A stretch of 64,000 nucleotides of DNA, from IMG/VR virus record IMGVR_UViG_2585427635_000006; one strand, written 5' to 3'. This DNA is from an uncultured virus (IMG/VR IMGVR_UViG_2585427635_000006) (taxonomy: Duplodnaviria; Heunggongvirae; Uroviricota; Caudoviricetes). Under the pieces are notes generated by a model. The model made no database searches. It had not been told where the DNA came from and worked only from the letters and a program-made list of their open reading frames with translations. Positions within the stretch are counted from its first letter, which is position 1. Each line of letters opens with the position of its first letter. Of this stretch, positions 8,746 through 59,240 are shown one piece after another. Both the position numbers and the translations under genes were made by a program.

Positions 8746-8937
8746 TTAGTGCTTAATCAATATGGATGAAAGCGTTTTAGCGGCTTCGTAGTGCGCGCGG
8801 CGAACGCGGTAATTGGCGATGCGTAGTGCATTGGGCATTGCTCGGGTATCGCGCAAAATGCAATTGGCTAACCCAGGGTGCGCGTCGTAGTTGCAACGTG
8901 CAGCGTGTTGTTCTTTCGGTGTGCGATAGCGGTTCAT
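8746..8937 (-). CDS. Small hypothetical protein (paralog of 48687-48878)
   Basis: Near-identical 63-aa ORF in both prophages. Confidence 0.65.
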   Translation of the reverse strand: MNRYRTPKEQHAARCNYDAHPGLANCILRDTRAMPNALRIANYRVRRAHYEAAKTLSSILIKH

Positions 8938-8960
8938 CGGTAGGTTTTTCCTGTGTCAGA

Positions 8961-9152
8961 TCACGCCGCACGTGGCGGGCTGGGATGCGTGTTGTTTCGC
9001 ATCGCTTTGCGGTGGATGGCTGTGACGGCAATAACGGCTGGGAACCCAAAGCGCCGGTAGGCGTCAGACTTGGCCTCAACAGTTTTATGAAACAGGCCGG
9101 TATAGGTGTACACACCCTGCTTGGTGCGTGCGGTGATGGCGCAAGGAATCAT
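8961..9152 (-). CDS. Small hypothetical protein (paralog at 48902-49093)
   Basis: AGGAGG RBS; conserved in both prophages. Confidence 0.65.
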   Translation of the reverse strand: MIPCAITARTKQGVYTYTGLFHKTVEAKSDAYRRFGFPAVIAVTAIHRKAMRNNTHPSPPRAA

Positions 9153-12337: not shown

Positions 12338-13042
12338 TTACTCCACCCACCTAGCGATCCACCTGACCCTGCCAATAATCTTAATTGGGTAATCCGGATC
12401 GTCTTTCCAGCGGGGTAACCGCCAACCATGATCTCCGTCAGGATTATCGGCAGCAAAAAAGACCTGTTTACTACCGTTGTCCTTAATAAGGATGCATCGC
12501 TTAACGTTGTACTCATCAGCGGCGGCACCTTGGGTGACAATCACATAGATGTGCTTGTCATGGGGCGTAGTGTCTGATGTGTCAAACATAATGGCGTCCC
12601 CAGATTCAATGTTGGGGAGCATGGAATCGCCGGTACCATGCATGATGACAAGGTTCTTTGAGTTCAGATGATGCTTATTTAATGAATCCTTGCGGAATTT
12701 AAAGATTTGGGTATCCACATTCCCCGCAATCTCTGGCCCCGTAGTGCCTAGGCCCATGCATTGGTCGTATGCCACCACAGGGGCCCACGGGTCGTCATCC
12801 GCCAAATTTGGTTCTGATTGAGATTGCTTTGGGTTTTTCTTGGGAAGCTTTCCAGAGGTAATCCATTCCATCCTTACACCGAAATGTGTAGCCCATTTTT
12901 CAATAAATTCAGGATTCGGCTTTACATTGTGACCGTTCTCCAGCCTCCAGACGTACTGTTTGCTGGTTCCTGCGATAGCTGCGAAGGTCGGTTGATCCAT
13001 CGCTGCTTCAATTCTTAATTCTCTGAGTCTTCCACCAATCAT
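12338..13042 (-). CDS. CI-like repressor (HTH plus S24 peptidase)
   Basis: N-terminal HTH; GDSM serine and VKR lysine; IIGRV end; divergent from cro. Confidence 0.9.
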   Translation of the reverse strand: MIGGRLRELRIEAAMDQPTFAAIAGTSKQYVWRLENGHNVKPNPEFIEKWATHFGVRMEWITSGKLPKKNPKQSQSEPNLADDDPWAPVVAYDQCMGLGTTGPEIAGNVDTQIFKFRKDSLNKHHLNSKNLVIMHGTGDSMLPNIESGDAIMFDTSDTTPHDKHIYVIVTQGAAADEYNVKRCILIKDNGSKQVFFAADNPDGDHGWRLPRWKDDPDYPIKIIGRVRWIARWVE

Positions 13043-13106
13043 GTTAACTATGATTGACTTAAATTGGTAAATCATGGTTGATTAACCCATGTAAATTATG
13101 ATTTAC
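13043..13106. promoter_or_regulatory. Three OR operators (16-bp imperfect palindromes, 24-bp period)
   Basis: GTTAACTATGATTGAC 13043, GTAAATCATGGTTGAT 13067, GTAAATTATGATTTAC 13091. Confidence 0.8.
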
Positions 13107-13113
13107 TACATGC

Positions 13114-13329
13114 ATGGACATTACTAAGCGCGTAGCTAGGGAATTTTTGGGATTCACGATGGACCGCCAGTTGGCTGATTTTTTCGGTGTCAGTAAGGCT
13201 GCCGTAAGTAAATGGCCTGAAAACCAAGGGATGCCTGAAGTGCGGCAATGGCAGTTACGTGCGCTTCGCCCAGACGTATTCGGCGCTCCCCCCACAGGCC
13301 ACAGGCAGGAGGTGTCCGATGCGGCCTAA
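13114..13329 (+). CDS. Cro-like repressor
   Basis: QLADFFGVSKAAVSKW HTH, divergent from cI. Confidence 0.88.
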   Translation: MDITKRVAREFLGFTMDRQLADFFGVSKAAVSKWPENQGMPEVRQWQLRALRPDVFGAPPTGHRQEVSDAA

Positions 13330-14199: not shown

Positions 14200-14444
14200 A
14201 GTGCCTAACCAGGCCCTTTGGAGGCCCTGTGAAAATTGATCTAAGCCCTGCTGATCGAAAAATGTTTGAGCAATACACACAAATCTATGGACTGGCTTGC
14301 GTTGATGAAGCGGTAGAACACGCTGCAAAACAAGCACTAAAGGACGCTTATCTGCTACGGGCCAAGAATGGGCATTCGCCTCTTGAAGAAGGCGTGGTGA
14401 TTTATTTGAAGGGACTTAAAAAGCCCTTAAGGAATCAAGAATGA
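14196..14444 (+). CDS. Hypothetical phage protein (copy at 54312-54560)
   Basis: Conserved in both prophages. Confidence 0.6.
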   Translation: MKCLTRPFGGPVKIDLSPADRKMFEQYTQIYGLACVDEAVEHAAKQALKDAYLLRAKNGHSPLEEGVVIYLKGLKKPLRNQE

Positions 14445-14467
14445 AAGCAAGCAATGACACCGTGAGC

Positions 14468-14496
14468 TTGACCACTGTACGCCGCTGCGGTACCGT
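14468..14496 (+). promoter_or_regulatory. Sigma70-like promoter of c4-like cassette 1
   Basis: TTGACC-17-TACCGT, repeated at 15080-15108 and 54584-54612. Confidence 0.75.
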
Positions 14497-14584
14497 CGCC
14501 GGTAAGGAGCCTCGAAACTCCATTGCAGCCAGCGGTTACCGCATCCGTCAATCTCGCGGTTTTTTTGTGCCCGTTCGTTTTCAC

Positions 14585-14663
14585 GGCGGGAGGGTGACGG
14601 ATACAAGACCCCGCAAGGGGGAAGAAGTCCGCCTGTCTGGTTGCAGGTTTCGAGCCTCCCGCC
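14585..14663 (+). ncRNA. c4-like antisense RNA 1
   Basis: Stem GGCGGGAGG/CCTCCCGCC, GCAA-loop hairpin; single-stranded CTGGTTGCA and GTTTCGAG are complementary to upstream and downstream targets. Confidence 0.75.
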
Positions 14664-14728
14664 TTCTACGGGTGCGACGCCTCGAAACGTCTCCCCGTGG
14701 TCATCTTGATCAACCAGGAGACGTTCTC

Positions 14729-15340
14729 ATGACGCAGTCCATTATTCCGTTCGATTTTCATTCTCACGCTGTGCGCGTTGTGATGCGCGATGGCAATCCG
14801 TGGTTTGTTGCCAAGGATGTCATGGATGCTCTGGATTACGCAGAAACCAGCAATCCGGCTCGTGTCACTGAGCACATCCCCAGTGAATGGAAGGGTGTGA
14901 ATCCGATTCACACCCTTGGCGGCGAGCAAAAACTGTTGTGCTTAGCCGAACCTGGTTTGTATTTCTTTCTTGGCCGCAGTGATAAACCAAAGGCCCTGCC
15001 ATTCCAGAAGTGGTTAGCTGGCGAAGTCCTTCCCTCGATCCGCAAGACGGGGAGCTATGTAAGCAATGACACCGTGAGCTTGACCACTGCCCATCGCTGC
15101 GGTACCGTCCTCGGTAAGGAGCGTAACAACTCCGGAATCAGCGGTACCCGCATCCGAAACCCATGCGGTTTTTTTACGCCTGCACGTTTTTACGTCGGGA
15201 GGGCGGCAGCGATACAACACCCTGCAAAGGGGAAAGCTGCCCGCCGTCTGATTCCGGTTGTTAACCTCCCGACACCTACGGGTGCGGCGCGTAACAACGT
15301 CTCCCCGTGGTCATCCCATGAATCAGGAGACGTTTTATGA
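14729..15340 (+). CDS. Bro-N antirepressor-like protein (ORF open from 14441, through an ash-like region)
   Basis: FDFHSHAVR...PWFVAKDV...EPGLY...EVLPSIRKTG. Confidence 0.8.
   Translation: MTQSIIPFDFHSHAVRVVMRDGNPWFVAKDVMDALDYAETSNPARVTEHIPSEWKGVNPIHTLGGEQKLLCLAEPGLYFFLGRSDKPKALPFQKWLAGEVLPSIRKTGSYVSNDTVSLTTAHRCGTVLGKERNNSGISGTRIRNPCGFFTPARFYVGRAAAIQHPAKGKAARRLIPVVNLPTPTGAARNNVSPWSSHESGDVL
15194..15273 (+). ncRNA. c4-like antisense RNA 2
   Basis: Stem GTCGGGAGG/CCTCCCGAC; CTGATTCCGG and GTTGTTA pair with flanking targets. Confidence 0.75.
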
Positions 15341-16137
15341 CGCAGTTACCCTCTGCCGTGTGTTTTTCCGGCCAATCCCTTTCCATTATCGACCGTGACG
15401 GTACGCCGTACCTGAGCGCACGCGAGTTAGCCCGGGCTTTGGGCTACGCCGATGAACGATCCGTATTGCGCATCTATGCACGTCGTGCGGATGAGTTCAC
15501 CGAACAAATGACCTGCGTGGTCAAATTGACCCCTCAGGGTGAGCAGGCCCGTGATATCCGTATTTTCAGCCCCCGTGGCTGTCACTTGGTGGCGATGTTT
15601 GCCCGTACTTCAGTAGCCGCCGCGTTTCGCCGCTGGGTGCTGGATGTGTTGGAAGTCCTGCCCTCGATCCGCAAGACAGGCGAGTACACGGTTAATCCCG
15701 ATCTGGAATACGACCAGATGCGCAGCTACTCCAAAGACCGTAAGCAAATGGAGGAGTTAAACACCGCTCATAGCCGTTGGATTAGCGATGTCAGAAGGCT
15801 ACTTGAGTCCGCAGGAATAAAAGAGCCTGAATTTCCAAAAGGGTTGGAAGATAGTAAAGCCATTGCCACATCGGCACTCGTCGAACTACTGAGATGGCAT
15901 CGCTGGGTACTGGATTTCGGTCCTGACTTCAGGCTACGGCTGACACCCGTCACGCTGCATACCAATTTTCTTACTAGCGACGAAGTGGCGGATTGGGTCA
16001 GACACCCAACGTTTCCAAGCAAGCATCTACCAGATATCGCAAAAGCCGCGATTGAGCGCATGAGTAAAGCGTTCTCAGAAAAAGCCCTCGGCCCACACCT
16101 GGAGCGGGTTGCGCAGCGGGTCAGTGGGATTACCTAG
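15337..16137 (+). CDS. Bro-N-like antirepressor with a unique C-terminal domain
   Basis: LARALGY...RIFSPRGCHLVAMFART..A.AFRRWVLD, then EVLPSIRKTG. Confidence 0.8.
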   Translation: MTQLPSAVCFSGQSLSIIDRDGTPYLSARELARALGYADERSVLRIYARRADEFTEQMTCVVKLTPQGEQARDIRIFSPRGCHLVAMFARTSVAAAFRRWVLDVLEVLPSIRKTGEYTVNPDLEYDQMRSYSKDRKQMEELNTAHSRWISDVRRLLESAGIKEPEFPKGLEDSKAIATSALVELLRWHRWVLDFGPDFRLRLTPVTLHTNFLTSDEVADWVRHPTFPSKHLPDIAKAAIERMSKAFSEKALGPHLERVAQRVSGIT

Positions 16138-16276: not shown

Positions 16277-18820
16277 GTGAACTCAACTATGAGTGATTCT
16301 ATCACGGTTCTAAAACACCCCGTAAATACCCTCGCTAAAACATGGCGCGCTGATGGCTCGGTGAAAGCCTACGACAACGCCAAGTTCTTCCAGGTGGAGC
16401 AACGAGCGCTCAACAATAGTCGCGAGTTGTCTGCACTCCTCACGGAGCTGGAGCAGAACCCGCATACCTGCGTGATTCGCGGGGCGTATGTGGGCGATGC
16501 CAAAGCCGCTGCACTTGATACTGAGTTCCAGAAAGGAAAAGTACGGCGCATTGCCGAGCTGTACGAGGATATCCCGCATCACTGGATGCTCGTTGAGATC
16601 GACAATTTCGATCCGGTGCGCCGCGATCCGGTGGCCGATCCGGTGGGGAGCATCGGCGAGTTCCTCCACGCACATCTCCCCTTTGGCTTCCACGGCGCAG
16701 ATTACCATTGGCAGTTATCCAGTAGCGCGGGGCGTCCTGAGTGTGCAGGCAAGCTAAAAGCCCATGTGTGGTTCTGGCTACATAAGCCGTACACCAGCGC
16801 ACAGCTCAAAGCCTGGGCCGCTGTCCGCGCTCCAGGGCTGGATGCTTCTGTATTTAATACGGTGCAAATCCACTACACCGCCGCCCCTGTGTTTGAAGCC
16901 GGTGTAACCGATCCAGTTCCAGTGCGCAGTGGCTTTGTGAAAGGCATTCTTGAGGATTCTGTATTGCTGGAGATTGATGCGGCGATCCTGGAAAGCGCCA
17001 AGGCTGAAGGCAAACCCAGCCGCCAACACAAGCTCATGGCCGCGGCTGCCAACGACCCTGTGGCTGTGCGCCTTGAAGAACGCGGGTTTATCTTATCGAC
17101 CGGTAAGGCCGGTGAACTCTTTATTGAATGCCCCTTGGCTAAGCAGCATACGCAAGCCTCTAGCCCCACAGCCACCGTGTATTACCCAGCACATACCGGG
17201 GGTTATGCCAATGGCGCGTTTGTATGTCAGCACGCCCACTGTCGCGGGGTGCCGCAATCGGCGTTTCTACATGAAATAGGAATCTATTCCGATGAGGAAA
17301 TGCTAGCCATGTTCGAGGACCTCACGGACGAGCCTGCCACGCTTGCCGTTGAGCGGCACGACGTGCCCGAAGCGCTGTACCTGACCACTGACACAGCGAA
17401 CGCAGTGCGGATCGCCAAGCACTACGGCAAACGGCTGATGGTGTCTGCTGAGCGCTGGTTCGTCTGGGAAGGCACCCACTGGGCGCATGGTATGGATGCG
17501 GCGCGCCTGCTAGCGTTAAAACTATCAAAAATCATTCGCGGCGAAGTCGAGCAATGGCGCACCAAGCGAGCGGACACGGAGAAGGAAAAAAGCAAAAACG
17601 CAAAGATCGCCGCTGCGCTGGAGGCATGGGGCAAGAAGTCGGAAATGCGCAGCACTGTAGAGGCGGCGATGGCGCTGGCCAAAAGTATGTTGGTTGTGAA
17701 AGCGGAACGGCTGGACACGGACCCCTGGCTATTGAACTGCACCAATGGCACCGTGGACCTGCGTACCGGAACGCTCAAAGCGCATCGCCCAGAGGACTAC
17801 ATTACGCGGGTTGTCCCCGTTAACTACACACCCGATGCCGCTGCACCTGTCTTTAAAAAGACACTGGCGCGCATCACCTGCGAAGAAGGGCAGGCCCAGC
17901 AGCCGCTCAGTGACTTTCTGCAACGCTGGTTCGGCTACTGCGCCACCGGCTCGGTACGTGAGCATAAGCTGGCGGTGATGTACGGGATGGGCCGTAACGG
18001 GAAAAGTACGCTACTGGACCTGATCTCAGGGATTCTTGGCAGTTATGCAGGTGTGGCCGCCCCAGGGCTGCTGATGGACGGCGGCCACGACAGGCACCCC
18101 ACCGAAATTGCCGATTTGGCGGGACGGCGCATGATGACGGTGAATGAAACCAGCGAAGGAGGCATCTTGCGTGAAGGCTTCGTGAAGCAGGCCACCGGAG
18201 GGGATTCACTCAAGGCCCGTCATATGCGTAGTGACTTCTTCGAGTTCCAGCCCACGCACAAGCTGCAATTACTCACTAACCATAAGCCTGTCATCAAGGG
18301 GCAGGACGTGGGTATCTGGAGTCGCCTGATGCTCATTCCGTTTGAAGCGCGCTTCGGCACCGCTGAAGAGGTAGAGGCGGGGGTTGCCCAATACCCCATA
18401 GACCATAAGATCACTGAGAAGCTTGCCGCTGAACGAGAAGGCGTCTTAGCGTGGGTTATCGCTGGTGCCGTGGAGTGGTATCGGGACGGGCTTAACCCGC
18501 CTGGGATTGTGCGGGACGCTTCAAAGGACTACCAGACGGAGCAGGACCGCGTTACTCAGTTCATTAAGGATGAGTGCGTATTGGGGATGGAACATGAGGA
18601 GCCGCTAACCGCGCCAATGGGTGGTGGGTTATACCCGGCGTATACGCAATGGTGCAAAGACAGCGGTGTTTACGCGTTGTCTAAAACCCGTTTTCTTGGC
18701 GAATTGGAGCGGTGCGTGCCGAAATTCAGGAAGAGAGACGTAAAGGAAACGGTTGGGACTGGGAAACGCCGTAGAGTTTTATCGATCCAAGGGATAGGGT
18801 TAGTAGACGCTGACATATAG
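16277..18820 (+). CDS. P4-family primase/D5-like SF3 helicase
   Basis: N-terminal primase-like region, Cys/His cluster, D5_N (LLNCTNGTVDL), GRNGKST Walker A. Confidence 0.9.
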   Translation: MNSTMSDSITVLKHPVNTLAKTWRADGSVKAYDNAKFFQVEQRALNNSRELSALLTELEQNPHTCVIRGAYVGDAKAAALDTEFQKGKVRRIAELYEDIPHHWMLVEIDNFDPVRRDPVADPVGSIGEFLHAHLPFGFHGADYHWQLSSSAGRPECAGKLKAHVWFWLHKPYTSAQLKAWAAVRAPGLDASVFNTVQIHYTAAPVFEAGVTDPVPVRSGFVKGILEDSVLLEIDAAILESAKAEGKPSRQHKLMAAAANDPVAVRLEERGFILSTGKAGELFIECPLAKQHTQASSPTATVYYPAHTGGYANGAFVCQHAHCRGVPQSAFLHEIGIYSDEEMLAMFEDLTDEPATLAVERHDVPEALYLTTDTANAVRIAKHYGKRLMVSAERWFVWEGTHWAHGMDAARLLALKLSKIIRGEVEQWRTKRADTEKEKSKNAKIAAALEAWGKKSEMRSTVEAAMALAKSMLVVKAERLDTDPWLLNCTNGTVDLRTGTLKAHRPEDYITRVVPVNYTPDAAAPVFKKTLARITCEEGQAQQPLSDFLQRWFGYCATGSVREHKLAVMYGMGRNGKSTLLDLISGILGSYAGVAAPGLLMDGGHDRHPTEIADLAGRRMMTVNETSEGGILREGFVKQATGGDSLKARHMRSDFFEFQPTHKLQLLTNHKPVIKGQDVGIWSRLMLIPFEARFGTAEEVEAGVAQYPIDHKITEKLAAEREGVLAWVIAGAVEWYRDGLNPPGIVRDASKDYQTEQDRVTQFIKDECVLGMEHEEPLTAPMGGGLYPAYTQWCKDSGVYALSKTRFLGELERCVPKFRKRDVKETVGTGKRRRVLSIQGIGLVDADI

Positions 18821-48686: not shown

Positions 48687-48878
48687 TTAGTGCTTGATCA
48701 GGGTTGAAGAAAGCGTTTTAGCGGCTTCGTAGTGCGCGCGACGAACGCGGTAATTGGCGATGCGTAGTGCATTGGGCATTGCTCGGGTATCGCGCAAAAT
48801 GCAGTGGGCTAACCCAGGGTGCGCGTCGTAATTGCAACGTGCAGCGTGTTGTTCTTTCGGTGTGCGATAGCGGTTCAT
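48687..48878 (-). CDS. Small hypothetical protein (paralog of 8746-8937)
   Basis: Near identity to the prophage 1 copy. Confidence 0.65.
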   Translation of the reverse strand: MNRYRTPKEQHAARCNYDAHPGLAHCILRDTRAMPNALRIANYRVRRAHYEAAKTLSSTLIKH

Positions 48879-48901
48879 GAGTAGGGTTTTCCTGTGTCAG
48901 A

Positions 48902-49093
48902 TCACGCCGCACGTGGCGGGCTGGGATGCGTGTTGTTTCGCATCGCTTTGCGGTGAATGGCTGTGACGGCAATAACGGCTGGGAATCCAAAGCGCCGGTA
49001 GGCGTCAGACTTCGCCTCAACAGTTTTATGAAACAGGCCGGTATAGGTGTACACACCCTGCTTGGTGCGTGCGGTGATGGCGCAAGGAATCAT
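48902..49093 (-). CDS. Small hypothetical protein (paralog of 8961-9152)
   Basis: Identical MIPCAITAR... ORF. Confidence 0.65.
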   Translation of the reverse strand: MIPCAITARTKQGVYTYTGLFHKTVEAKSDAYRRFGFPAVIAVTAIHRKAMRNNTHPSPPRAA

Positions 49094-54315: not shown

Positions 54316-54560
54316 AGTGCCAAACCAGGCCCTTTGGAGGCCCTGTGAAGATAGATCTAACACCGACTGTTCAAAAAATATTTGAGCAATACGCACAAAT
54401 CTATGGACTGGCTTGTGTTGATGAAGCGGTAGAACACGCTGCAAAACAAGCACTAAAGGACGCTTATCTGCTACGGGCCAAGAATGGGCATTCGCCTCTT
54501 GGAAAAGGCGTGGTGATTTATTTGAAGGGACTTAAAAAGCCCTTAAGGAATCAAGAATGA
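54312..54560 (+). CDS. Hypothetical protein
   Basis: Paralog of 14196-14444. Confidence 0.6.
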   Translation: MKCQTRPFGGPVKIDLTPTVQKIFEQYAQIYGLACVDEAVEHAAKQALKDAYLLRAKNGHSPLGKGVVIYLKGLKKPLRNQE

Positions 54561-54697
54561 AAGCAAGCGATGACACCGTGAGCTTGACCACTGTACGCCG
54601 CTGCGGTACCGTCGCCGGTAAGGAGCGTAACAACTCCGGAAGTAGCGGTAACCGCACCCGAAACCCATGCGGTTTTTTTACGCCTGCACGTTTTTAC

Positions 54698-54777
54698 GTC
54701 GGGAGGGCGGCAGCGATACAACACCCTGCAAAGGGGAAAGCTGCCCGCCGTCTACTTCCGGTTGTTAACCTCCCGAC
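54698..54777 (+). ncRNA. c4-like antisense RNA 3
   Basis: Same scaffold as RNA 2, with CTACTTCCGG replacing CTGATTCCGG. Confidence 0.75.
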
Positions 54778-54840
54778 ACCTACGGGTGCGGCGCGTAACA
54801 ACGTCTCCCCGTGGTCATCCCATGAAGTAGGAGACGTTCT

Positions 54841-55431
54841 ATGACGCGGTCCATTATTCCGTTCGATTTTCATTCCCACGTTGTGCGCGTTGTGATGCGC
54901 GATGGCAATCCGTGGTTCATTGCTACCGATGTTGCCGTAGCGCTTGGCTACCGTGATGCAGCTAATGCCGCACGTCACGTTGGTTTACATCAGAAGGGTA
55001 CTCATATTGTGAGTACCATCAAGGGAAATCAAGAACTTACGATCGTTTCAGAAGGTGGGTTATACCGCCTTGTTCTACGAAGCCGTAAGCCAGAGGCTGT
55101 TGCCTTCTCGGATTGGGTTACGGATGAAGTCCTGCCCTCAATCCGCAAGACGGGAAGCTATTCCACCACGGGAACAATGGTGAATGACGATGCACTCTGC
55201 GCCATCTGGTTTCTGTGCGACCACTTCAAGAAGCTGCACGAGATGTCCCGCGTCAACAAGGTTCCGCAAGCACTGTATTGGCTTGGAGCGACAGAGATTA
55301 GCGGTGAGCTTGGTACGCGTCTGCTTGAGGGCATGAAGGGCGGCGTTCTCAAAATAGAAAAAGCCCTCGGCCCACACCTGGAGCAGGCCGCCCAAAAGGG
55401 CATGGGCAATGCAAGCAGGCATCTGTCATGA
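54841..55431 (+). CDS. Bro-N antirepressor-like protein
   Basis: PWFIATDV...LGY...SEGGLY.L...SRKP.A..F..WV..EVLPSIRKTG. Confidence 0.88.
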   Translation: MTRSIIPFDFHSHVVRVVMRDGNPWFIATDVAVALGYRDAANAARHVGLHQKGTHIVSTIKGNQELTIVSEGGLYRLVLRSRKPEAVAFSDWVTDEVLPSIRKTGSYSTTGTMVNDDALCAIWFLCDHFKKLHEMSRVNKVPQALYWLGATEISGELGTRLLEGMKGGVLKIEKALGPHLEQAAQKGMGNASRHLS

Positions 55432-55533
55432 ACACCATCAGTAATGAACAGGGAGTTGGAATGAATGCAATCACACCGTTTCACTTTGAATCGCAAGCCG
55501 TGCGCGTTCAGCTTGATGATTAAGGGAAACGCC

Positions 55534-56682
55534 ATGCATGCACCATCTGAGTTCACTCTCCAGTTCGAATCGCAGGCCGTGCGTGTTCAGGTCGATGAGC
55601 ACGAGCGGCGATGGTTCAACGCCAATGACATTTGCGCGGCGTTGGAGTTGCTAAATCCGCGTGCTGCACTTGCTCAGCATGTGGACATAGAAAACGTTCG
55701 GAAGCTGGGCACTTTTACGGTGCGTGGCCTTCAACACGCCAACTATCTAAGCGAGCCAGGGGTGTACGCCCTGCTCATCGGCAGCACCAAAGAGGCGGCT
55801 AAACGCTTTAGACGGTGGCTCACCAGTGAAGCGCTGCCCACAGTCCTAAAAGCGGGTCAACACATTGCCCCGCTGCACAGCGTGCCGTCCTTCTCGACTC
55901 CCTTTCCGCCCAGAGAGGAACACACAATGAACGCAATCACTCCATTCCAATTTGAATCGCACGCCGTGCGTACCGTGGTCGATGATCACGGCGAAGTGTG
56001 GTTTGTCGGCACAGACGTTGCTACGGTATTAGGCTACGCCAACCCCCATAAAGCGTTGGATGCCCACTGCAAGGGGTGTGCGAAACGCACACCCCTTCAG
56101 ACACCAGGCGGGATTCAAAAAATTCGGATCATCTCCGAGCCTGACATGCTCCGCTTGATTGTGAGCAGCAAACTCCCTGCCGCAGAGCGGTTCGAGCGTT
56201 GGGTGTTTGAGGAAGTTCTGCCCACCCTGCGCAAGACAGGCACCTACTCCACACCAGGAGCACTGCCCACCTTGCCTGGGCCGACACAGGATCGCGTTGC
56301 CGCACTCCTGTTAATCGGCCAATTCGTTTCCAAAGTGACTGGCGTAAAACCAGGGATTGCCGCAGCGGCGACGCTGGCCTGCATCAAAAGCAATACGAAT
56401 TTAACGACCGAAGAAATACGCCGTGCATTGCCTGCGTTGCAGGAACCGCTTTGCCTGCTCAACGCCACGCAACTAGGCAAGCGGCTGCATTGCTCGGCCA
56501 AGGCGGTGAACCAATTATTAGCCTCCAGAGGCTTTCAGTTCCGTAATGAACGCGACGAATGGGAATTAACCGAAGCCGGTCGCGTGTGGTGTGAAGCCAT
56601 TCCGTACTCGCGCAACGGGCACAGCAGTTATCAACTCTTGTGGAATCCAGAGGTCATCGCGTGTCTGAGGGAGGCTGCATGA
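55534..56682 (+). CDS. Double Bro-N plus KilAC-like antirepressor
   Basis: Paralog of 4880-6103 with a different second Bro-N. Confidence 0.85.
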   Translation: MHAPSEFTLQFESQAVRVQVDEHERRWFNANDICAALELLNPRAALAQHVDIENVRKLGTFTVRGLQHANYLSEPGVYALLIGSTKEAAKRFRRWLTSEALPTVLKAGQHIAPLHSVPSFSTPFPPREEHTMNAITPFQFESHAVRTVVDDHGEVWFVGTDVATVLGYANPHKALDAHCKGCAKRTPLQTPGGIQKIRIISEPDMLRLIVSSKLPAAERFERWVFEEVLPTLRKTGTYSTPGALPTLPGPTQDRVAALLLIGQFVSKVTGVKPGIAAAATLACIKSNTNLTTEEIRRALPALQEPLCLLNATQLGKRLHCSAKAVNQLLASRGFQFRNERDEWELTEAGRVWCEAIPYSRNGHSSYQLLWNPEVIACLREAA

Positions 56683-56940: not shown

Positions 56941-57783
56941 ATGCCGAGTCGTTTGCTTCGTGAGGGTATCTTGAGCAGTGAACGCGTCAATGCGCTGGAT
57001 TTCCCTGCCGAAGTGTTTTACCGGCGTCTGATGTCCAAGGTAGATGACCATGGATTATATGACGCCCGCCCGTCGATGCTGAGGGCATCGCTGTACCCGT
57101 TGAAGGTTGATCGGGTTCGTGAGGCCGACATTTCCCGTTGGATCGCTGCGTGCGAGAAGGCCGGACTGATCGCTCTCTACGACGAAGATGGAAAGCCGTA
57201 TTTGCAAATGTTGGACACCCGTTGGCAGGCAAGGTCGGAACCTAAATTTCCGTTGCCACCAACTGCCCGTAGTGGCGTTCAGATTTCTACGGATGCAAAC
57301 AACTGTAAACAGGTGAAAACAGCTGTTCACCTAGTCGTAGTCGAAGACGAAGACGATAAAAACAACAAAATACCTAACGGTATTTTGAGTGCATCGCTTG
57401 ACAGCGAAGCACCTGACATCGGGGAGGAACATCAAAATCAGAAAAAACCAGCTTTGGGCGAAAAACCACCTTCTGGCGACCGGATTCCGTACCAGGCCAT
57501 TGTGGATGCCTTCAACGCCACGATGACAGAGCTGCCCAAGGTCAGGGAAATGACGCCGAAGCGGCGCACGTTGATCCGGTCAGCATGGCAGGCGTCGCCA
57601 CAACGACGCAGCCTTGGATTCTTTCAGGCGTACCTGGACGAATGTCAGGAGGATCCTTTTCTCAACGGCACTGGGCCGTACAAGCCACCGGACTGGCGGC
57701 CAAGTTTCGATTACCTGATGAAAAACGAGGTGGTGACGAAGGTTTTTGAAACGGCGATAGATCGCGAGGAGCGCTGCCAGTGA
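56941..57783 (+). CDS. Phage replication initiator
   Basis: R.LR..I..SE, L...DD.G, C-terminal W...FDYL; upstream of DnaB. Confidence 0.78.
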   Translation: MPSRLLREGILSSERVNALDFPAEVFYRRLMSKVDDHGLYDARPSMLRASLYPLKVDRVREADISRWIAACEKAGLIALYDEDGKPYLQMLDTRWQARSEPKFPLPPTARSGVQISTDANNCKQVKTAVHLVVVEDEDDKNNKIPNGILSASLDSEAPDIGEEHQNQKKPALGEKPPSGDRIPYQAIVDAFNATMTELPKVREMTPKRRTLIRSAWQASPQRRSLGFFQAYLDECQEDPFLNGTGPYKPPDWRPSFDYLMKNEVVTKVFETAIDREERCQ

Positions 57784-59240
57784 ACGCTCGTCTTTACGCT
57801 TTCGATGAACGTTGTACTGGGGAACTACGGGTGCCGCCGTGGTCGTTGGAGGCTGAGCAGGCGGTGTTGGGGGGGCTGATGCTGGCACCGGAAATGCTGG
57901 TCAAGATCGCGGACTGGATCACGCCAGAAAACTTCTACCGCCGTGATCACCAGTTGATCTATCGCGCCATTCTGGAATTGGACAGCAAGCGTCAGCCTTG
58001 CGATGCCGTGACCTTGATGGAGTGGTTCCACTCGCAAGGGTTGAGTGCAGAGGTGGACGGTGGTGCGTATCTGATCGAATTGGCGAGTACCACGCCCTCG
58101 GCGGCTAACATTGTGGCCTACGCTGAAATCGTTGTGGACAAGGCGAGATTGCGTGAGTTGATCGACGTGGGTACCCGTCTTCAGGATGCCGGGTTTAAGC
58201 CTGAAGGCCGGGAGACACGCGACCTGATCGCCGAGGCTGAACACGCAATTGCTCGGCTTGCTGATCGCCCACGCGTCGGCGGCATCAAGACGATGCAGGA
58301 AGTCGCACGGCGCTGGTTCGACGATTTGCAGTGCCGTTACAGCGACAAGGGACGGTTGTACGGACTGCCGACACCGTGGGGAAAGTTCAACGCGATGACA
58401 GGCGGATTAGCCCCTGGTCAGCTGATCATTCTTGCAGCCAGACCGGGGATGGGGAAAAGCGCGTGGGCGGTGAATGTGGCCACGGCAAACGCATTGCATG
58501 GCAAGCGGGTACTGTTTTTCAACCTGGAAATGACCGATGTCAGTATTTTTAACCGCTGCATTGCCTCGGTCATGAACGTGCCATTGCAATGGCTTCGTGA
58601 GCCTAACGACGACTGCCCCGACAGTGAAATGTTCTGGAGTCAGGTCACTGAAGGGGTGCGCCGGATGCGTGATGCCGGACTCATGATTGATGACACGCCT
58701 GGACTCAATCGGGAGCAGATCATGGCGCGTGCGCGCCGTGAGCATCTGCGTCAGCCGGTGGACTTGATCATCATTGACCACCTGCACCTGATGCCTCTGC
58801 CTGGAAAGACGCGTGAAACGGTGGAGATTGGGGAAATCACCCGCGATCTTAAGGGATTAGGTAAGGAGCTTGGCTGTCCGGTGGTGTTGCTGGCGCAGTT
58901 GAATCGCGGTGTTGAAGCACGGCAGAACAAGCGACCGGTGATGAAGGACCTGCGTGAATCTGGAAACATCGAACAGGACGCCGACCTGATCGTATTTTTG
59001 TACCGAGACGACTATTACGCCGAACAGGAAGATCGTGCCAGCGAGTACCCCGGTTTTCTGGAAATCAACATTGCCAAACAACGTGAAGGGCAGACAGGCC
59101 GGGTGTGGGCACGCAGCAGACTGGCCTACGGATACATTGACGATTACGAAGGCGAACCACCTCAAGGCCGCGTTTCCGTGGTATCGGCACCCAGCAAAGC
59201 CCGCATGCGCTGGAGTCAATACAGAGACGATCAGGGGTGA
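57780..59240 (+). CDS. dnaB: Replicative DNA helicase (phage DnaB)
   Basis: [41 protein letters not shown]. Confidence 0.95.

Follow-up and report, generated by a model that had tools for sequence, protein, structure and literature searches.

The immI (c4) region of bacteriophages P1 and P7 is the closest described counterpart of the element reported here, a cassette of ~260 nucleotides (nt) that is present three times in a stretch of DNA from an uncultured virus of the Caudoviricetes (IMG/VR record IMGVR_UViG_2585427635_000006; the whole stretch of 64,000 nt, or 64 kb, is called the window). The antisense logic of such a region is known since P1/P7. In the annotated P1 record the elements are ordered P1c4 promoter, a1, b1, c4, a2, b2, icd and ant1. 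The a1 site lies in a hairpin loop and is followed by b1 and by an isrK-like hairpin with a U-run. The c4 RNA, a substrate of RNase P (PMC11143913), is ~80 nt long and has an outer stem, the antisense word b' in the loop of hairpin 2, the antisense word a' in the next strand, and an ACC-like tail. The b2 site lies at the ribosome site, and specificity variants differ at all three places: between P1 and P7 the a- and b-words have 2 nt of difference each. The same arrangement is found in the window, and each cassette is probably a secondary-immunity module of the P1 immI (c4) type. The RNA scaffold is another one, sRNA-Xcc1, and the module lies between a cI/cro region and a Bro-N antirepressor gene.

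Other phages control their antirepressors or their immunity by related means. In phage N15 the antirepressor-control RNA is a processed RNA of an untranslated leader and acts through premature transcription termination. The CI RNA of P4, also a processed leader RNA, pairs up- and downstream of itself (seqA/seqC) and keeps immunity; it works by premature transcription termination (PMC4825925), whereas b2 of the window cassettes overlaps the ribosome site. The Salmonella Gifsy-1 locus isrK-orf45 (STnc1160)-anrP resembles the window cassettes in having a terminated leader RNA, a processed structured RNA and an antirepressor gene, and in a frame across the RNA, which in Gifsy-1 is coupled to the antirepressor start; its long transcript is predicted to be silent (Hershko-Shalev 2016, PMC4825925). 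It differs in that the short RNA has been shown to activate and that orf45 has its own regulated start (PMC4825925), of a kind that window copies 2 and 3 lack.

The scaffold is known from another context. Members of sRNA-Xcc1, the family to which the window RNAs belong, occur in Xanthomonas integron cassettes, where the downstream gene is symE and no a2/b2 sites were seen, and as sXF1-5 of Xylella fastidiosa Temecula1, whose array spacing is the one found among relatives of the window (PMC12189769). The text of that paper and the Xanthomonas integron preprint treat these molecules as trans-acting virulence RNAs, and two of three sources (PMC12189769, PMC7313666 and the Xanthomonas integron preprint) place the sRNA-Xcc1 and C4-type families side by side. 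The best named match to the window cassettes, at 84% identity, is Xylella phage Xfas53 (GQ421471). There too, tandem cassettes separate cI from bro-N, and a P4-type primase comes next; unlike here, the cassettes are annotated as a 'repeat_region' and as the 'repeat-encoded protein' gp20/gp21.

The three cassettes lie on the + strand at 14468-14731, 15080-15339 and 54584-54843, and their alignment (A1, 337 columns) has a mean column identity of 89%. All share one order. A promoter-like site, TTGACC and TACCGT with 17 nt between them, is followed by a GGAG/CUCC hairpin with a1 in its loop, b1, a hairpin with seven T after it, a structured RNA of ~80 nt with a' and b', a2, a hairpin that has the Shine-Dalgarno sequence as its 3' arm and b2 just within, and the ATG of a Bro-N gene. 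Their parts are as follows.

14468-14496, + strand: cassette 1, promoter-like site (TTGACC, 17 nt, TACCGT), from direct reading and conservation
14506-14566, + strand: cassette 1, leader with GGAG/CUCC hairpin; a1 at 14511-14518 in its loop, b1 at 14524-14532
14539-14566, + strand: cassette 1, terminator-like hairpin and T7, read from the sequence
14585-14671, + strand: cassette 1, structured RNA of sRNA-Xcc1 type; b' at 14637-14645 in the hairpin 2 loop, a' at 14647-14654 in the 3' joining strand
14681-14731, + strand: cassette 1, initiation region; a2 at 14681-14688, hairpin burying the Shine-Dalgarno sequence, b2 at 14711-14717, AGGAG at 14716-14720, ATG at 14729
15080-15108, + strand: cassette 2, promoter-like site, from direct reading and conservation
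15118-15175, + strand: cassette 2, leader; a1 at 15124-15130, b1 at 15135-15141, hairpin CCGCAU/AUGCGG at 15148-15168, T7
15194-15281, + strand: cassette 2, structured RNA; b' at 15248-15254, a' at 15257-15263
15292-15339, + strand: cassette 2, initiation region; a2 at 15292-15298, Shine-Dalgarno hairpin, b2 at 15320-15326, ATG at 15337
54584-54843, + strand: cassette 3, in the second prophage; promoter-like site at 54584-54612, a1 at 54628, b1 at 54639
54698-54785, + strand: cassette 3, structured RNA; b' at 54752, a' at 54761; then a2 at 54796, b2 at 54824 and ATG at 54841

The recognition words change together at all three places of a cassette. In copy 1 the a-word CTCGAAAC stands at 14511 and 14681, with its antisense at 14647; the b2 word CAACCAG at 14711 has its antisense at 14637, and b1, TGCAGCCAG (14524-14532), pairs with CUGGUUGCA, one G-U pair included. 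In copy 2 the a-word TAACAAC (15124 and 15292) has its antisense at 15257 and the b-word GAATCAG (15135 and 15320) at 15248. Copy 3 has the same a-word (54628 and 54796; antisense 54761) and a different b-word, GAAGTAG (54639 and 54824; antisense 54752). Each b2 abuts or overlaps the AGGAG Shine-Dalgarno sequence, 8-9 nt ahead of the Bro-N ATG. The outer stem of the RNA shows a G-C to U-A change (GGCGGGAGG/CCUCCCGCC compared with GUCGGGAGG/CCUCCCGAC). Thus the original prediction, made from the letters of the window, of three copies in this order with co-varying words and a compensatory outer-stem change stands, and its appeal to the P1/P7 immI logic agrees with the element order of the annotated P1 record and with the placement of b' and a'. 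Most single 7-mer words recur 2-9 further times in the window; since single 7-mers are not rare, the evidence lies in the ordered triple sets and their covariation, not in the words by themselves.

The window cassettes are not copies of immI. Their RNAs belong to a different sequence family from c4 and have a longer hairpin 1, which includes the internal loop AUACAA. The Bro-N gene is gated directly, with no icd-like small gene between, and a frame through the cassette may provide coupling instead. A conserved hairpin additionally buries the Shine-Dalgarno sequence, and the cassettes are stacked.

Only three Rfam matches reach curated thresholds across the 64 kb, and all are sRNA-Xcc1 (RF02221): cassette 2 scores 69.5, cassette 3 68.8 and cassette 1 61.1 bits (cut-off 53), each over positions 1-87 of the 87 of the model. 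The RF02221 alignment shows a three-way junction with b' in the loop of hairpin 2 and a' in the joining strand on the 3' side, and the folds of the three window RNAs agree with the family structure. The predicted fold of the RNA is -40.9 kcal/mol (z -2.06) for cassette 1 and -38.1 kcal/mol (z -3.15) for cassette 2. The outer stem is acceptor-like and is followed by ACC in copies 2 and 3 and by UUC in copy 1. The initiation region folds with -25.9 kcal/mol (z -2.98) in cassette 1 and with z -3.40 in cassette 2. Its Shine-Dalgarno hairpin, of 8-9 base pairs with the Shine-Dalgarno sequence as 3' arm and flanked by a2 and b2, has z -3.0 to -3.4 across the three copies. A lower stem joining a2 with the start-codon region was rejected as a conserved feature; only about half of the aligned rows pair there. 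Two further matches were set aside as chance-level: COG3860 (minus strand; 19.1 bits, cut-off 42.5) and mir-1231 on P1. Related sequence occurs more widely: more than 20 Stx2a-converting and Shigella phages contain unannotated sequence that is 80% identical, across 74 nt, to the RNA core at 14587-14661, in one record of that type a 'putative antirepressor' is annotated under the match, and Stenotrophomonas phage Smp131 matches cassette 2 at 74.5%.

Relatives were collected from an order-level sample searched with RF02221 (matches at E <= 0.001 in 15/150 genomes, above the cut-off in 11/150) and from three exact-pattern scans of IMG/VR with the conserved 5' part of the RNA, the words being excluded from the pattern. 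With a cassette finder that required the AUACAA motif, 131 distinct cassettes were obtained, 88 of them parsed at all six sites, 10 as leader and RNA only, and 33 unparsed. The 88 reduce to 49 distinct word sets, which form alignment A2 (one row per set, window copies included); the core of the Shine-Dalgarno hairpin is paired in 90-100% of these rows. TTGAC stands exactly 38 nt 5' of the a1 hairpin in all 45 related cassettes whose extract extended that far.

A word code is evident from this collection. In 44 of the 49 word sets a1/a'/a2 and b1/b'/b2 are concordant, and seven a-words and 17 b-words occur in 32 combinations. The helices have mean lengths of 7.1-7.7, compared with 3.9-5.1 for shuffled partners (0/2000 shuffles each). 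At the leader sites of A2, pairing is 98.8%, as against 82.5% when shuffled and 24-53% when slid, with 107 double-sided-change cells where 25 are expected; at the ribosome site it is 91.8%, as against 72.3% and 33-47%, with 156 such cells where 45 are expected. Double-sided changes are found in 7/12 leader pairs and 10/16 ribosome-site pairs, and the covariation score was reached by 0/500 shuffles in both tests. The search for a/b covariation in related prophages that had been proposed with the original prediction thus upholds a diversified, covarying code, and the P1/P7 parallel points the same way. A minimal example is locus L003, whose a-word differs from that of cassette 1 by one base, altered in a1, a' and a2 alike. 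Among the five discordant sets are one parsing problem and four chimeras (L076, L113, L128 and L129), in which the leader or ribosome-site words come from another code than the RNA; recombination inside cassettes is suggested by them. Computed energies of cognate leader duplexes in the window reach -28 to -29 kcal/mol, crosses between copies 2 and 3, with a common a-word and 2 nt of difference in b, -20 to -22 kcal/mol, and crosses of copy 1 with the others -10 to -16 kcal/mol. The b2 duplexes have -13.1 when cognate and -7.6 and -8.6 when copies 2 and 3 are crossed. Because the conserved flanks pair, certain non-cognate combinations reach equally low values.

Scaffold exchange was found at locus L003 (provirus record G002), where a counterpart of cassette 1 is present together with the same truncated Bro-N gene, junction and promoter as in the window. 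At the slot of cassette 2 (2012-2216) L003 carries an isrK match (49.7 bits) and a bona fide C4 RNA (62.3 bits, cut-off 45) with matching words of its own, and one frame of 508 amino acids (aa) spans both cassettes and both Bro-N genes. Thus a C4 cassette replaces an sRNA-Xcc1 cassette, and two unrelated-looking scaffolds have been exchanged in one slot. To judge from this arrangement, L003 offers the strongest single evidence that the cassettes may work in a c4-like manner.

In the wider sRNA-Xcc1 family the leader is the regular partner of the RNA. Among 33 loci, the own leader is the best partner of the RNA 3' half in 19 and one of its four best in 30; the summed own-leader energy is -958 kcal/mol, compared with -709 +/- 17 kcal/mol for permutations (0/5000). 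This test omitted L003, L013, L019, L024 and L031, which the finder missed, and L020, which contains N. A SymE_toxin domain is encoded by the gene after the RNA in 7 of the 17 sRNA-Xcc1 loci tested (L012, L015, L025, L028, L029, L032 and L033, all from the order-level genomes). Several of the SymE-type leaders have no terminator, and a2/b2 were not seen there. An integron cassette with symE and sRNA-Xcc1 has already been described, in the text of a 2025 preprint, though not as c4-like (bioRxiv 10.1101/2025.06.18.660453).

The genes behind the cassettes, and the repressor region ahead of the first, are these.

14729-15340, + strand: gene 1, truncated antirepressor; Bro-N (PF02498, E 1.3e-19) in aa 1-110, read-through of cassette 2 in aa 112-203
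15337-16137, + strand: gene 2, full-length protein of the Bro-N antirepressor family, 266 aa; Bro-N E 1.4e-9, phrog_2593 'anti-repressor' E 9.5e-75 over residues 1-266
54841-55431, + strand: gene 3, full-length protein of the Bro-N antirepressor family, 196 aa; Bro-N E 2e-22, phrog_2593 over the whole length
12338-13075, - strand: CI-like repressor of the first prophage, with helix-turn-helix and Peptidase_S24 domains (Pfam)
13114-13329, + strand: Cro-like gene (Pfam)

The genes are named antirepressors from PHROG family labels, and repressor inactivation is their predicted role. It had been claimed that each cassette gates its own antirepressor. This holds for cassettes 2 and 3, which precede full-length genes, and has to be amended for cassette 1, which precedes a truncated Bro-N gene: aa 1-110 of gene 1 are 55% identical to gene 3, aa 112-203 are 90% identical to the frame across cassette 3 (both by BLASTP), and its PHROG matches split at residue ~112. 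A 405-aa protein with two Bro-N domains (55465-56682) follows gene 3 after a gap of 33 nt and has no cassette of its own, so cassette 3 may gate two antirepressor-like genes.

A stop-free forward frame crosses 87 of the 88 distinct cassettes, compared with 29/88 on the reverse strand and 793/4400 shuffles (18%). It mostly ends in ATGA at the Bro-N start or runs in frame with that start, and in copies 2 and 3 it contains no start codon downstream of the cassette promoter. The open frame spans 14441-15340 and 54557-54844 in the window and is also seen in the related loci L035-L143. It may serve translational coupling from upstream genes, or it may be inherited chance. Possibly the Shine-Dalgarno hairpin is opened only by ribosomes that come in from the early operon upstream, and the lock would in this way be bypassed after lytic transcription has started. 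The family phrog_17048, labelled 'anti-repressor', matches the translated cassette at 15062-15340 (gene 1 residues 112-203) with E 1.4e-41, and so looks like a protein family made from translations of a non-coding module.

The neighbourhood is Xfas53-like: an S24 CI-like repressor, a Cro-like gene, small genes, one or more cassettes, Bro-N and a primase. The cassettes lie in Xfas53-like prophages, apparently of Xylella. A phage integrase (41318-42427, minus strand) lies between two prophage regions, and the window thus holds two related prophages in tandem. Their regulatory regions are near-identical and their replication genes unlike, with a D5-type primase at 16277-18820 in one and a DnaB helicase at 57780-59240 in the other. 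Each also carries one copy of a 78-nt element with perfect 12-bp inverted-repeat ends (8896-8973 and 48837-48914, minus strand).

By the precedents of P1 and Gifsy-1, an immI-type module of this kind would work as follows. Transcription from a weak constitutive promoter would mostly stop at the hairpin and U-run of the leader and so release a short IsrK-like a1/b1 RNA. Transcripts that read through would yield the ~80-nt RNA, probably by cleavage at the acceptor-like outer stem, as P1 c4 is cut by RNase P. The ~80-nt RNA would pair with a2 and b2 and so leave the antirepressor untranslated in the lysogen, while a1/b1 pairing, in cis or on the short RNA, would titrate or autoregulate the structured RNA. 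Specificity would reside in two words of 7-8 nt, and RNAs with other words should fail to silence a given gene; an incoming phage with an unmatched code might then express its antirepressor, as the original prediction proposed. Here cassette 1 would be left gating a truncated gene and cassette 2 would gate an intact one. Expression data come from assembled Logan contigs of RNA sequencing of a relative (three runs of one study and one run of uncertain kind). Contig pieces over 15113-15249 have a word depth of 510-890, compared with 69-144 alongside, a weak signal because the contigs give neither ends nor strand and DNA is not excluded; 14502-14705 are uncovered, which carries no information either way. 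In X. fastidiosa Temecula1, transcripts of all seven sRNA-Xcc1 homologues were reported from whole-cell lysate (PMC12189769, 2025).

Several observations weigh against the immI-type reading. The check proposed with the original prediction, an Rfam search with the C4 and c4-a1b1 models, fails: the RNAs belong to sRNA-Xcc1 and not to the C4 family. C4 (RF01695) and c4-a1b1 (RF03163) gave no match in 14300-15500 even at E <= 10, C4 has no gathering-level match (45 bits) anywhere in the window, and isrK (RF01394) reached 17.6 bits in 14300-15500, in the leader of cassette 1 only. The cut-offs of the leader motifs are 46.7 bits for c4-a1b1 and 50 bits for isrK; as a positive control, the same models gave C4 68.8, c4-a1b1 51.0 and isrK 35.1 bits on P1, and C4 69.6 bits on P7. 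A consensus scan of 14300-15500 reported neither promoter nor terminator, since the -10 hexamers match at only 3 of 6 positions and the terminator loops have 9-12 nt (the scan excludes 3-of-6 -10 hexamers and loops longer than 8 nt); the labels promoter and terminator thus rest on direct reading and conservation. The isolated leader folds no better than shuffles (z -0.34). The predicted folds bury the Shine-Dalgarno sequence whether or not the RNA is there, so that the RNA may add little or act otherwise, and the intramolecular helices hardly vary and are therefore without covariation support. Many of the related cassettes are close kin, and the shuffle tests consequently overstate significance; the slid controls and the free reassortment of a- and b-words make a better argument. 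When the RNA 3' half was tested by RNAduplex against 110 nt downstream in the 33 loci, there was no cognate signal (1275/5000), because the test is dominated by a GC-rich background and because a2 and b2 are short and lie apart; anchored word tests were used instead. Finally, a2/b2 were not seen by eye in most sRNA-Xcc1 loci beyond a Xylella-type and Stenotrophomonas-type subgroup, and the leader as universal partner of these RNAs fits a termination or decoy mechanism equally well.

This last point bears on a serious, though on balance rather unlikely, rival: that transcription is the main level at which the RNA acts, as for P4 CI, with a1/b1 pairing in the nascent leader favouring the hairpin and U-run, and with a2/b2 secondary. 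The a1/b1 leader is common to nearly all sampled sRNA-Xcc1 loci and a2/b2 to a subgroup only, the hairpin and U-run follow directly after b1, and the same idea is raised for STnc1160 in the text of the IsrK paper (PMC4825925). Two alternative partners are available to an invariant GCGG that follows b1: the invariant CCGC arm of the hairpin, as in the minimum free energy fold of the leader, and a CCG of the RNA beside b' (A2 columns 31-34 and 154-157), a possible switch. The GCGG/CCGC pairs never vary, so they give no covariation evidence, and the switch is missing from the Xanthomonas-type leaders examined. The a2/b2 sites covary as strongly as a1/b1, and a function at the ribosome site is needed to account for this. 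The same covariation is left unexplained if control is net positive, as for Gifsy-1 IsrK, with a silent long transcript and a short a1/b1 RNA that acts in trans on a'/b' and turns translation on. We hold this to be somewhat less probable again than P4-like termination. The predicted full-length fold, with a1/b1 paired in cis to a'/b' and the Shine-Dalgarno sequence buried, does resemble 'structure A' of isrK-orf45-anrP (PMC4825925), and the ATGA in which the cassette-crossing frame ends at the Bro-N start recalls the coupling of orf45 to anrP. The lack of a start downstream of the promoter in the frame of cassettes 2 and 3, however, leaves no orf45-like initiation site to unmask.

Two published or annotated views appear very improbable for these loci. 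The first treats the RNAs as trans-acting virulence RNAs directed against host or plant transcripts, the published view of sRNA-Xcc1 and sXF1-5; it draws on Chen et al. 2011, as represented in papers that cite it, and on the RNAs found in extracellular vesicles with predicted plant targets (PMC12189769). Yet the words vary among copies and in every case have their matching sites within the cassette itself, a tracking of cis sites that speaks against trans action as the primary role; the loci lie in the prophage immunity region ahead of antirepressor genes, and 32 different word pairs cannot serve one conserved trans target. The other, equally far-fetched, is that the repeats encode a protein, as the annotation of Xfas53 and phrog_17048 imply. 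The stop-free frame in nearly every cassette and the ATGA overlaps at both of its ends speak for a protein. No Pfam family matches the cassette frame, however, its product is Arg-rich and of low complexity, and segment lengths vary by 1-5 nt, so that the frame in which conserved nucleotides are read changes between cassettes; conservation and covariation track RNA pairing, not codons. An immI-type module is the preferred reading of the cassettes.

Stacking recurs among the relatives. Xfas53 has three cassettes spaced 382-383 nt, six IMG/VR loci have two to four each at 380-384 nt, and three overlapping loci of one contig jointly show five; the text of PMC12189769 gives five sRNA-Xcc1 copies with starts 381-386 nt apart in X. 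fastidiosa Temecula1. The array unit is a cassette with the first ~33 Bro-N codons, and the parsed cassettes of one array carry differing word pairs. The unit in the window, of 609 nt, keeps the whole Bro-N domain and represents a second junction type, common to L003 (621 nt). Stacking probably arose through recombination at the conserved promoter. With close to an even chance it has no function, the arrays being left over from recombination of related prophages at the conserved promoter and the start of the gene. In favour of this, the genes gated by upstream cassettes are stubs only, the junctions fall in conserved sequence, and 4 of the 5 discordant word sets are chimeric cassettes. Against this, parsed cassettes of one array have intact, concordant and mutually different word pairs, the stub frames retain a relay of 127-129 aa in 11 of 13 complete units, and there are two junction types (380-384 nt and 609-621 nt). 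A more tentative proposal is that tandem arrays are an RNA-encoded immunity repertoire. Each stub-gene cassette would add a key against one more related phage, whose antirepressor it would silence, and up to five keys would protect against cross-induction by co-circulating relatives; the two-word code, with at least 7 x 17 freely reassorted variants, would then reflect an arms race of keys and locks.

In the papers searched, neither the scaffold assignment nor the combinatorial code nor the arrays turned up. Nor was sRNA-Xcc1 as a c4-type RNA with cis targets found in the searched sRNA-Xcc1 and c4 literature, which comprised main texts and did not cover Chen 2011 and Summer 2010. If the immI-type reading is true, a curated family, sRNA-Xcc1, is to be re-read as phage immunity antisense RNAs with cis targets, and five tandem 'sXF' RNAs, proposed as vesicle-borne virulence RNAs of a crop pathogen, need another interpretation. 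The cassettes would also be a large natural set of orthogonal RNA-RNA specificities, with two words in 32 combinations written thrice per cassette, where P1/P7 give one pair. C4-type and Xcc1-type scaffolds would be interchangeable under one promoter. The recurrent stacking in genomes rich in related prophages raises the question whether prophages collect each other's keys.

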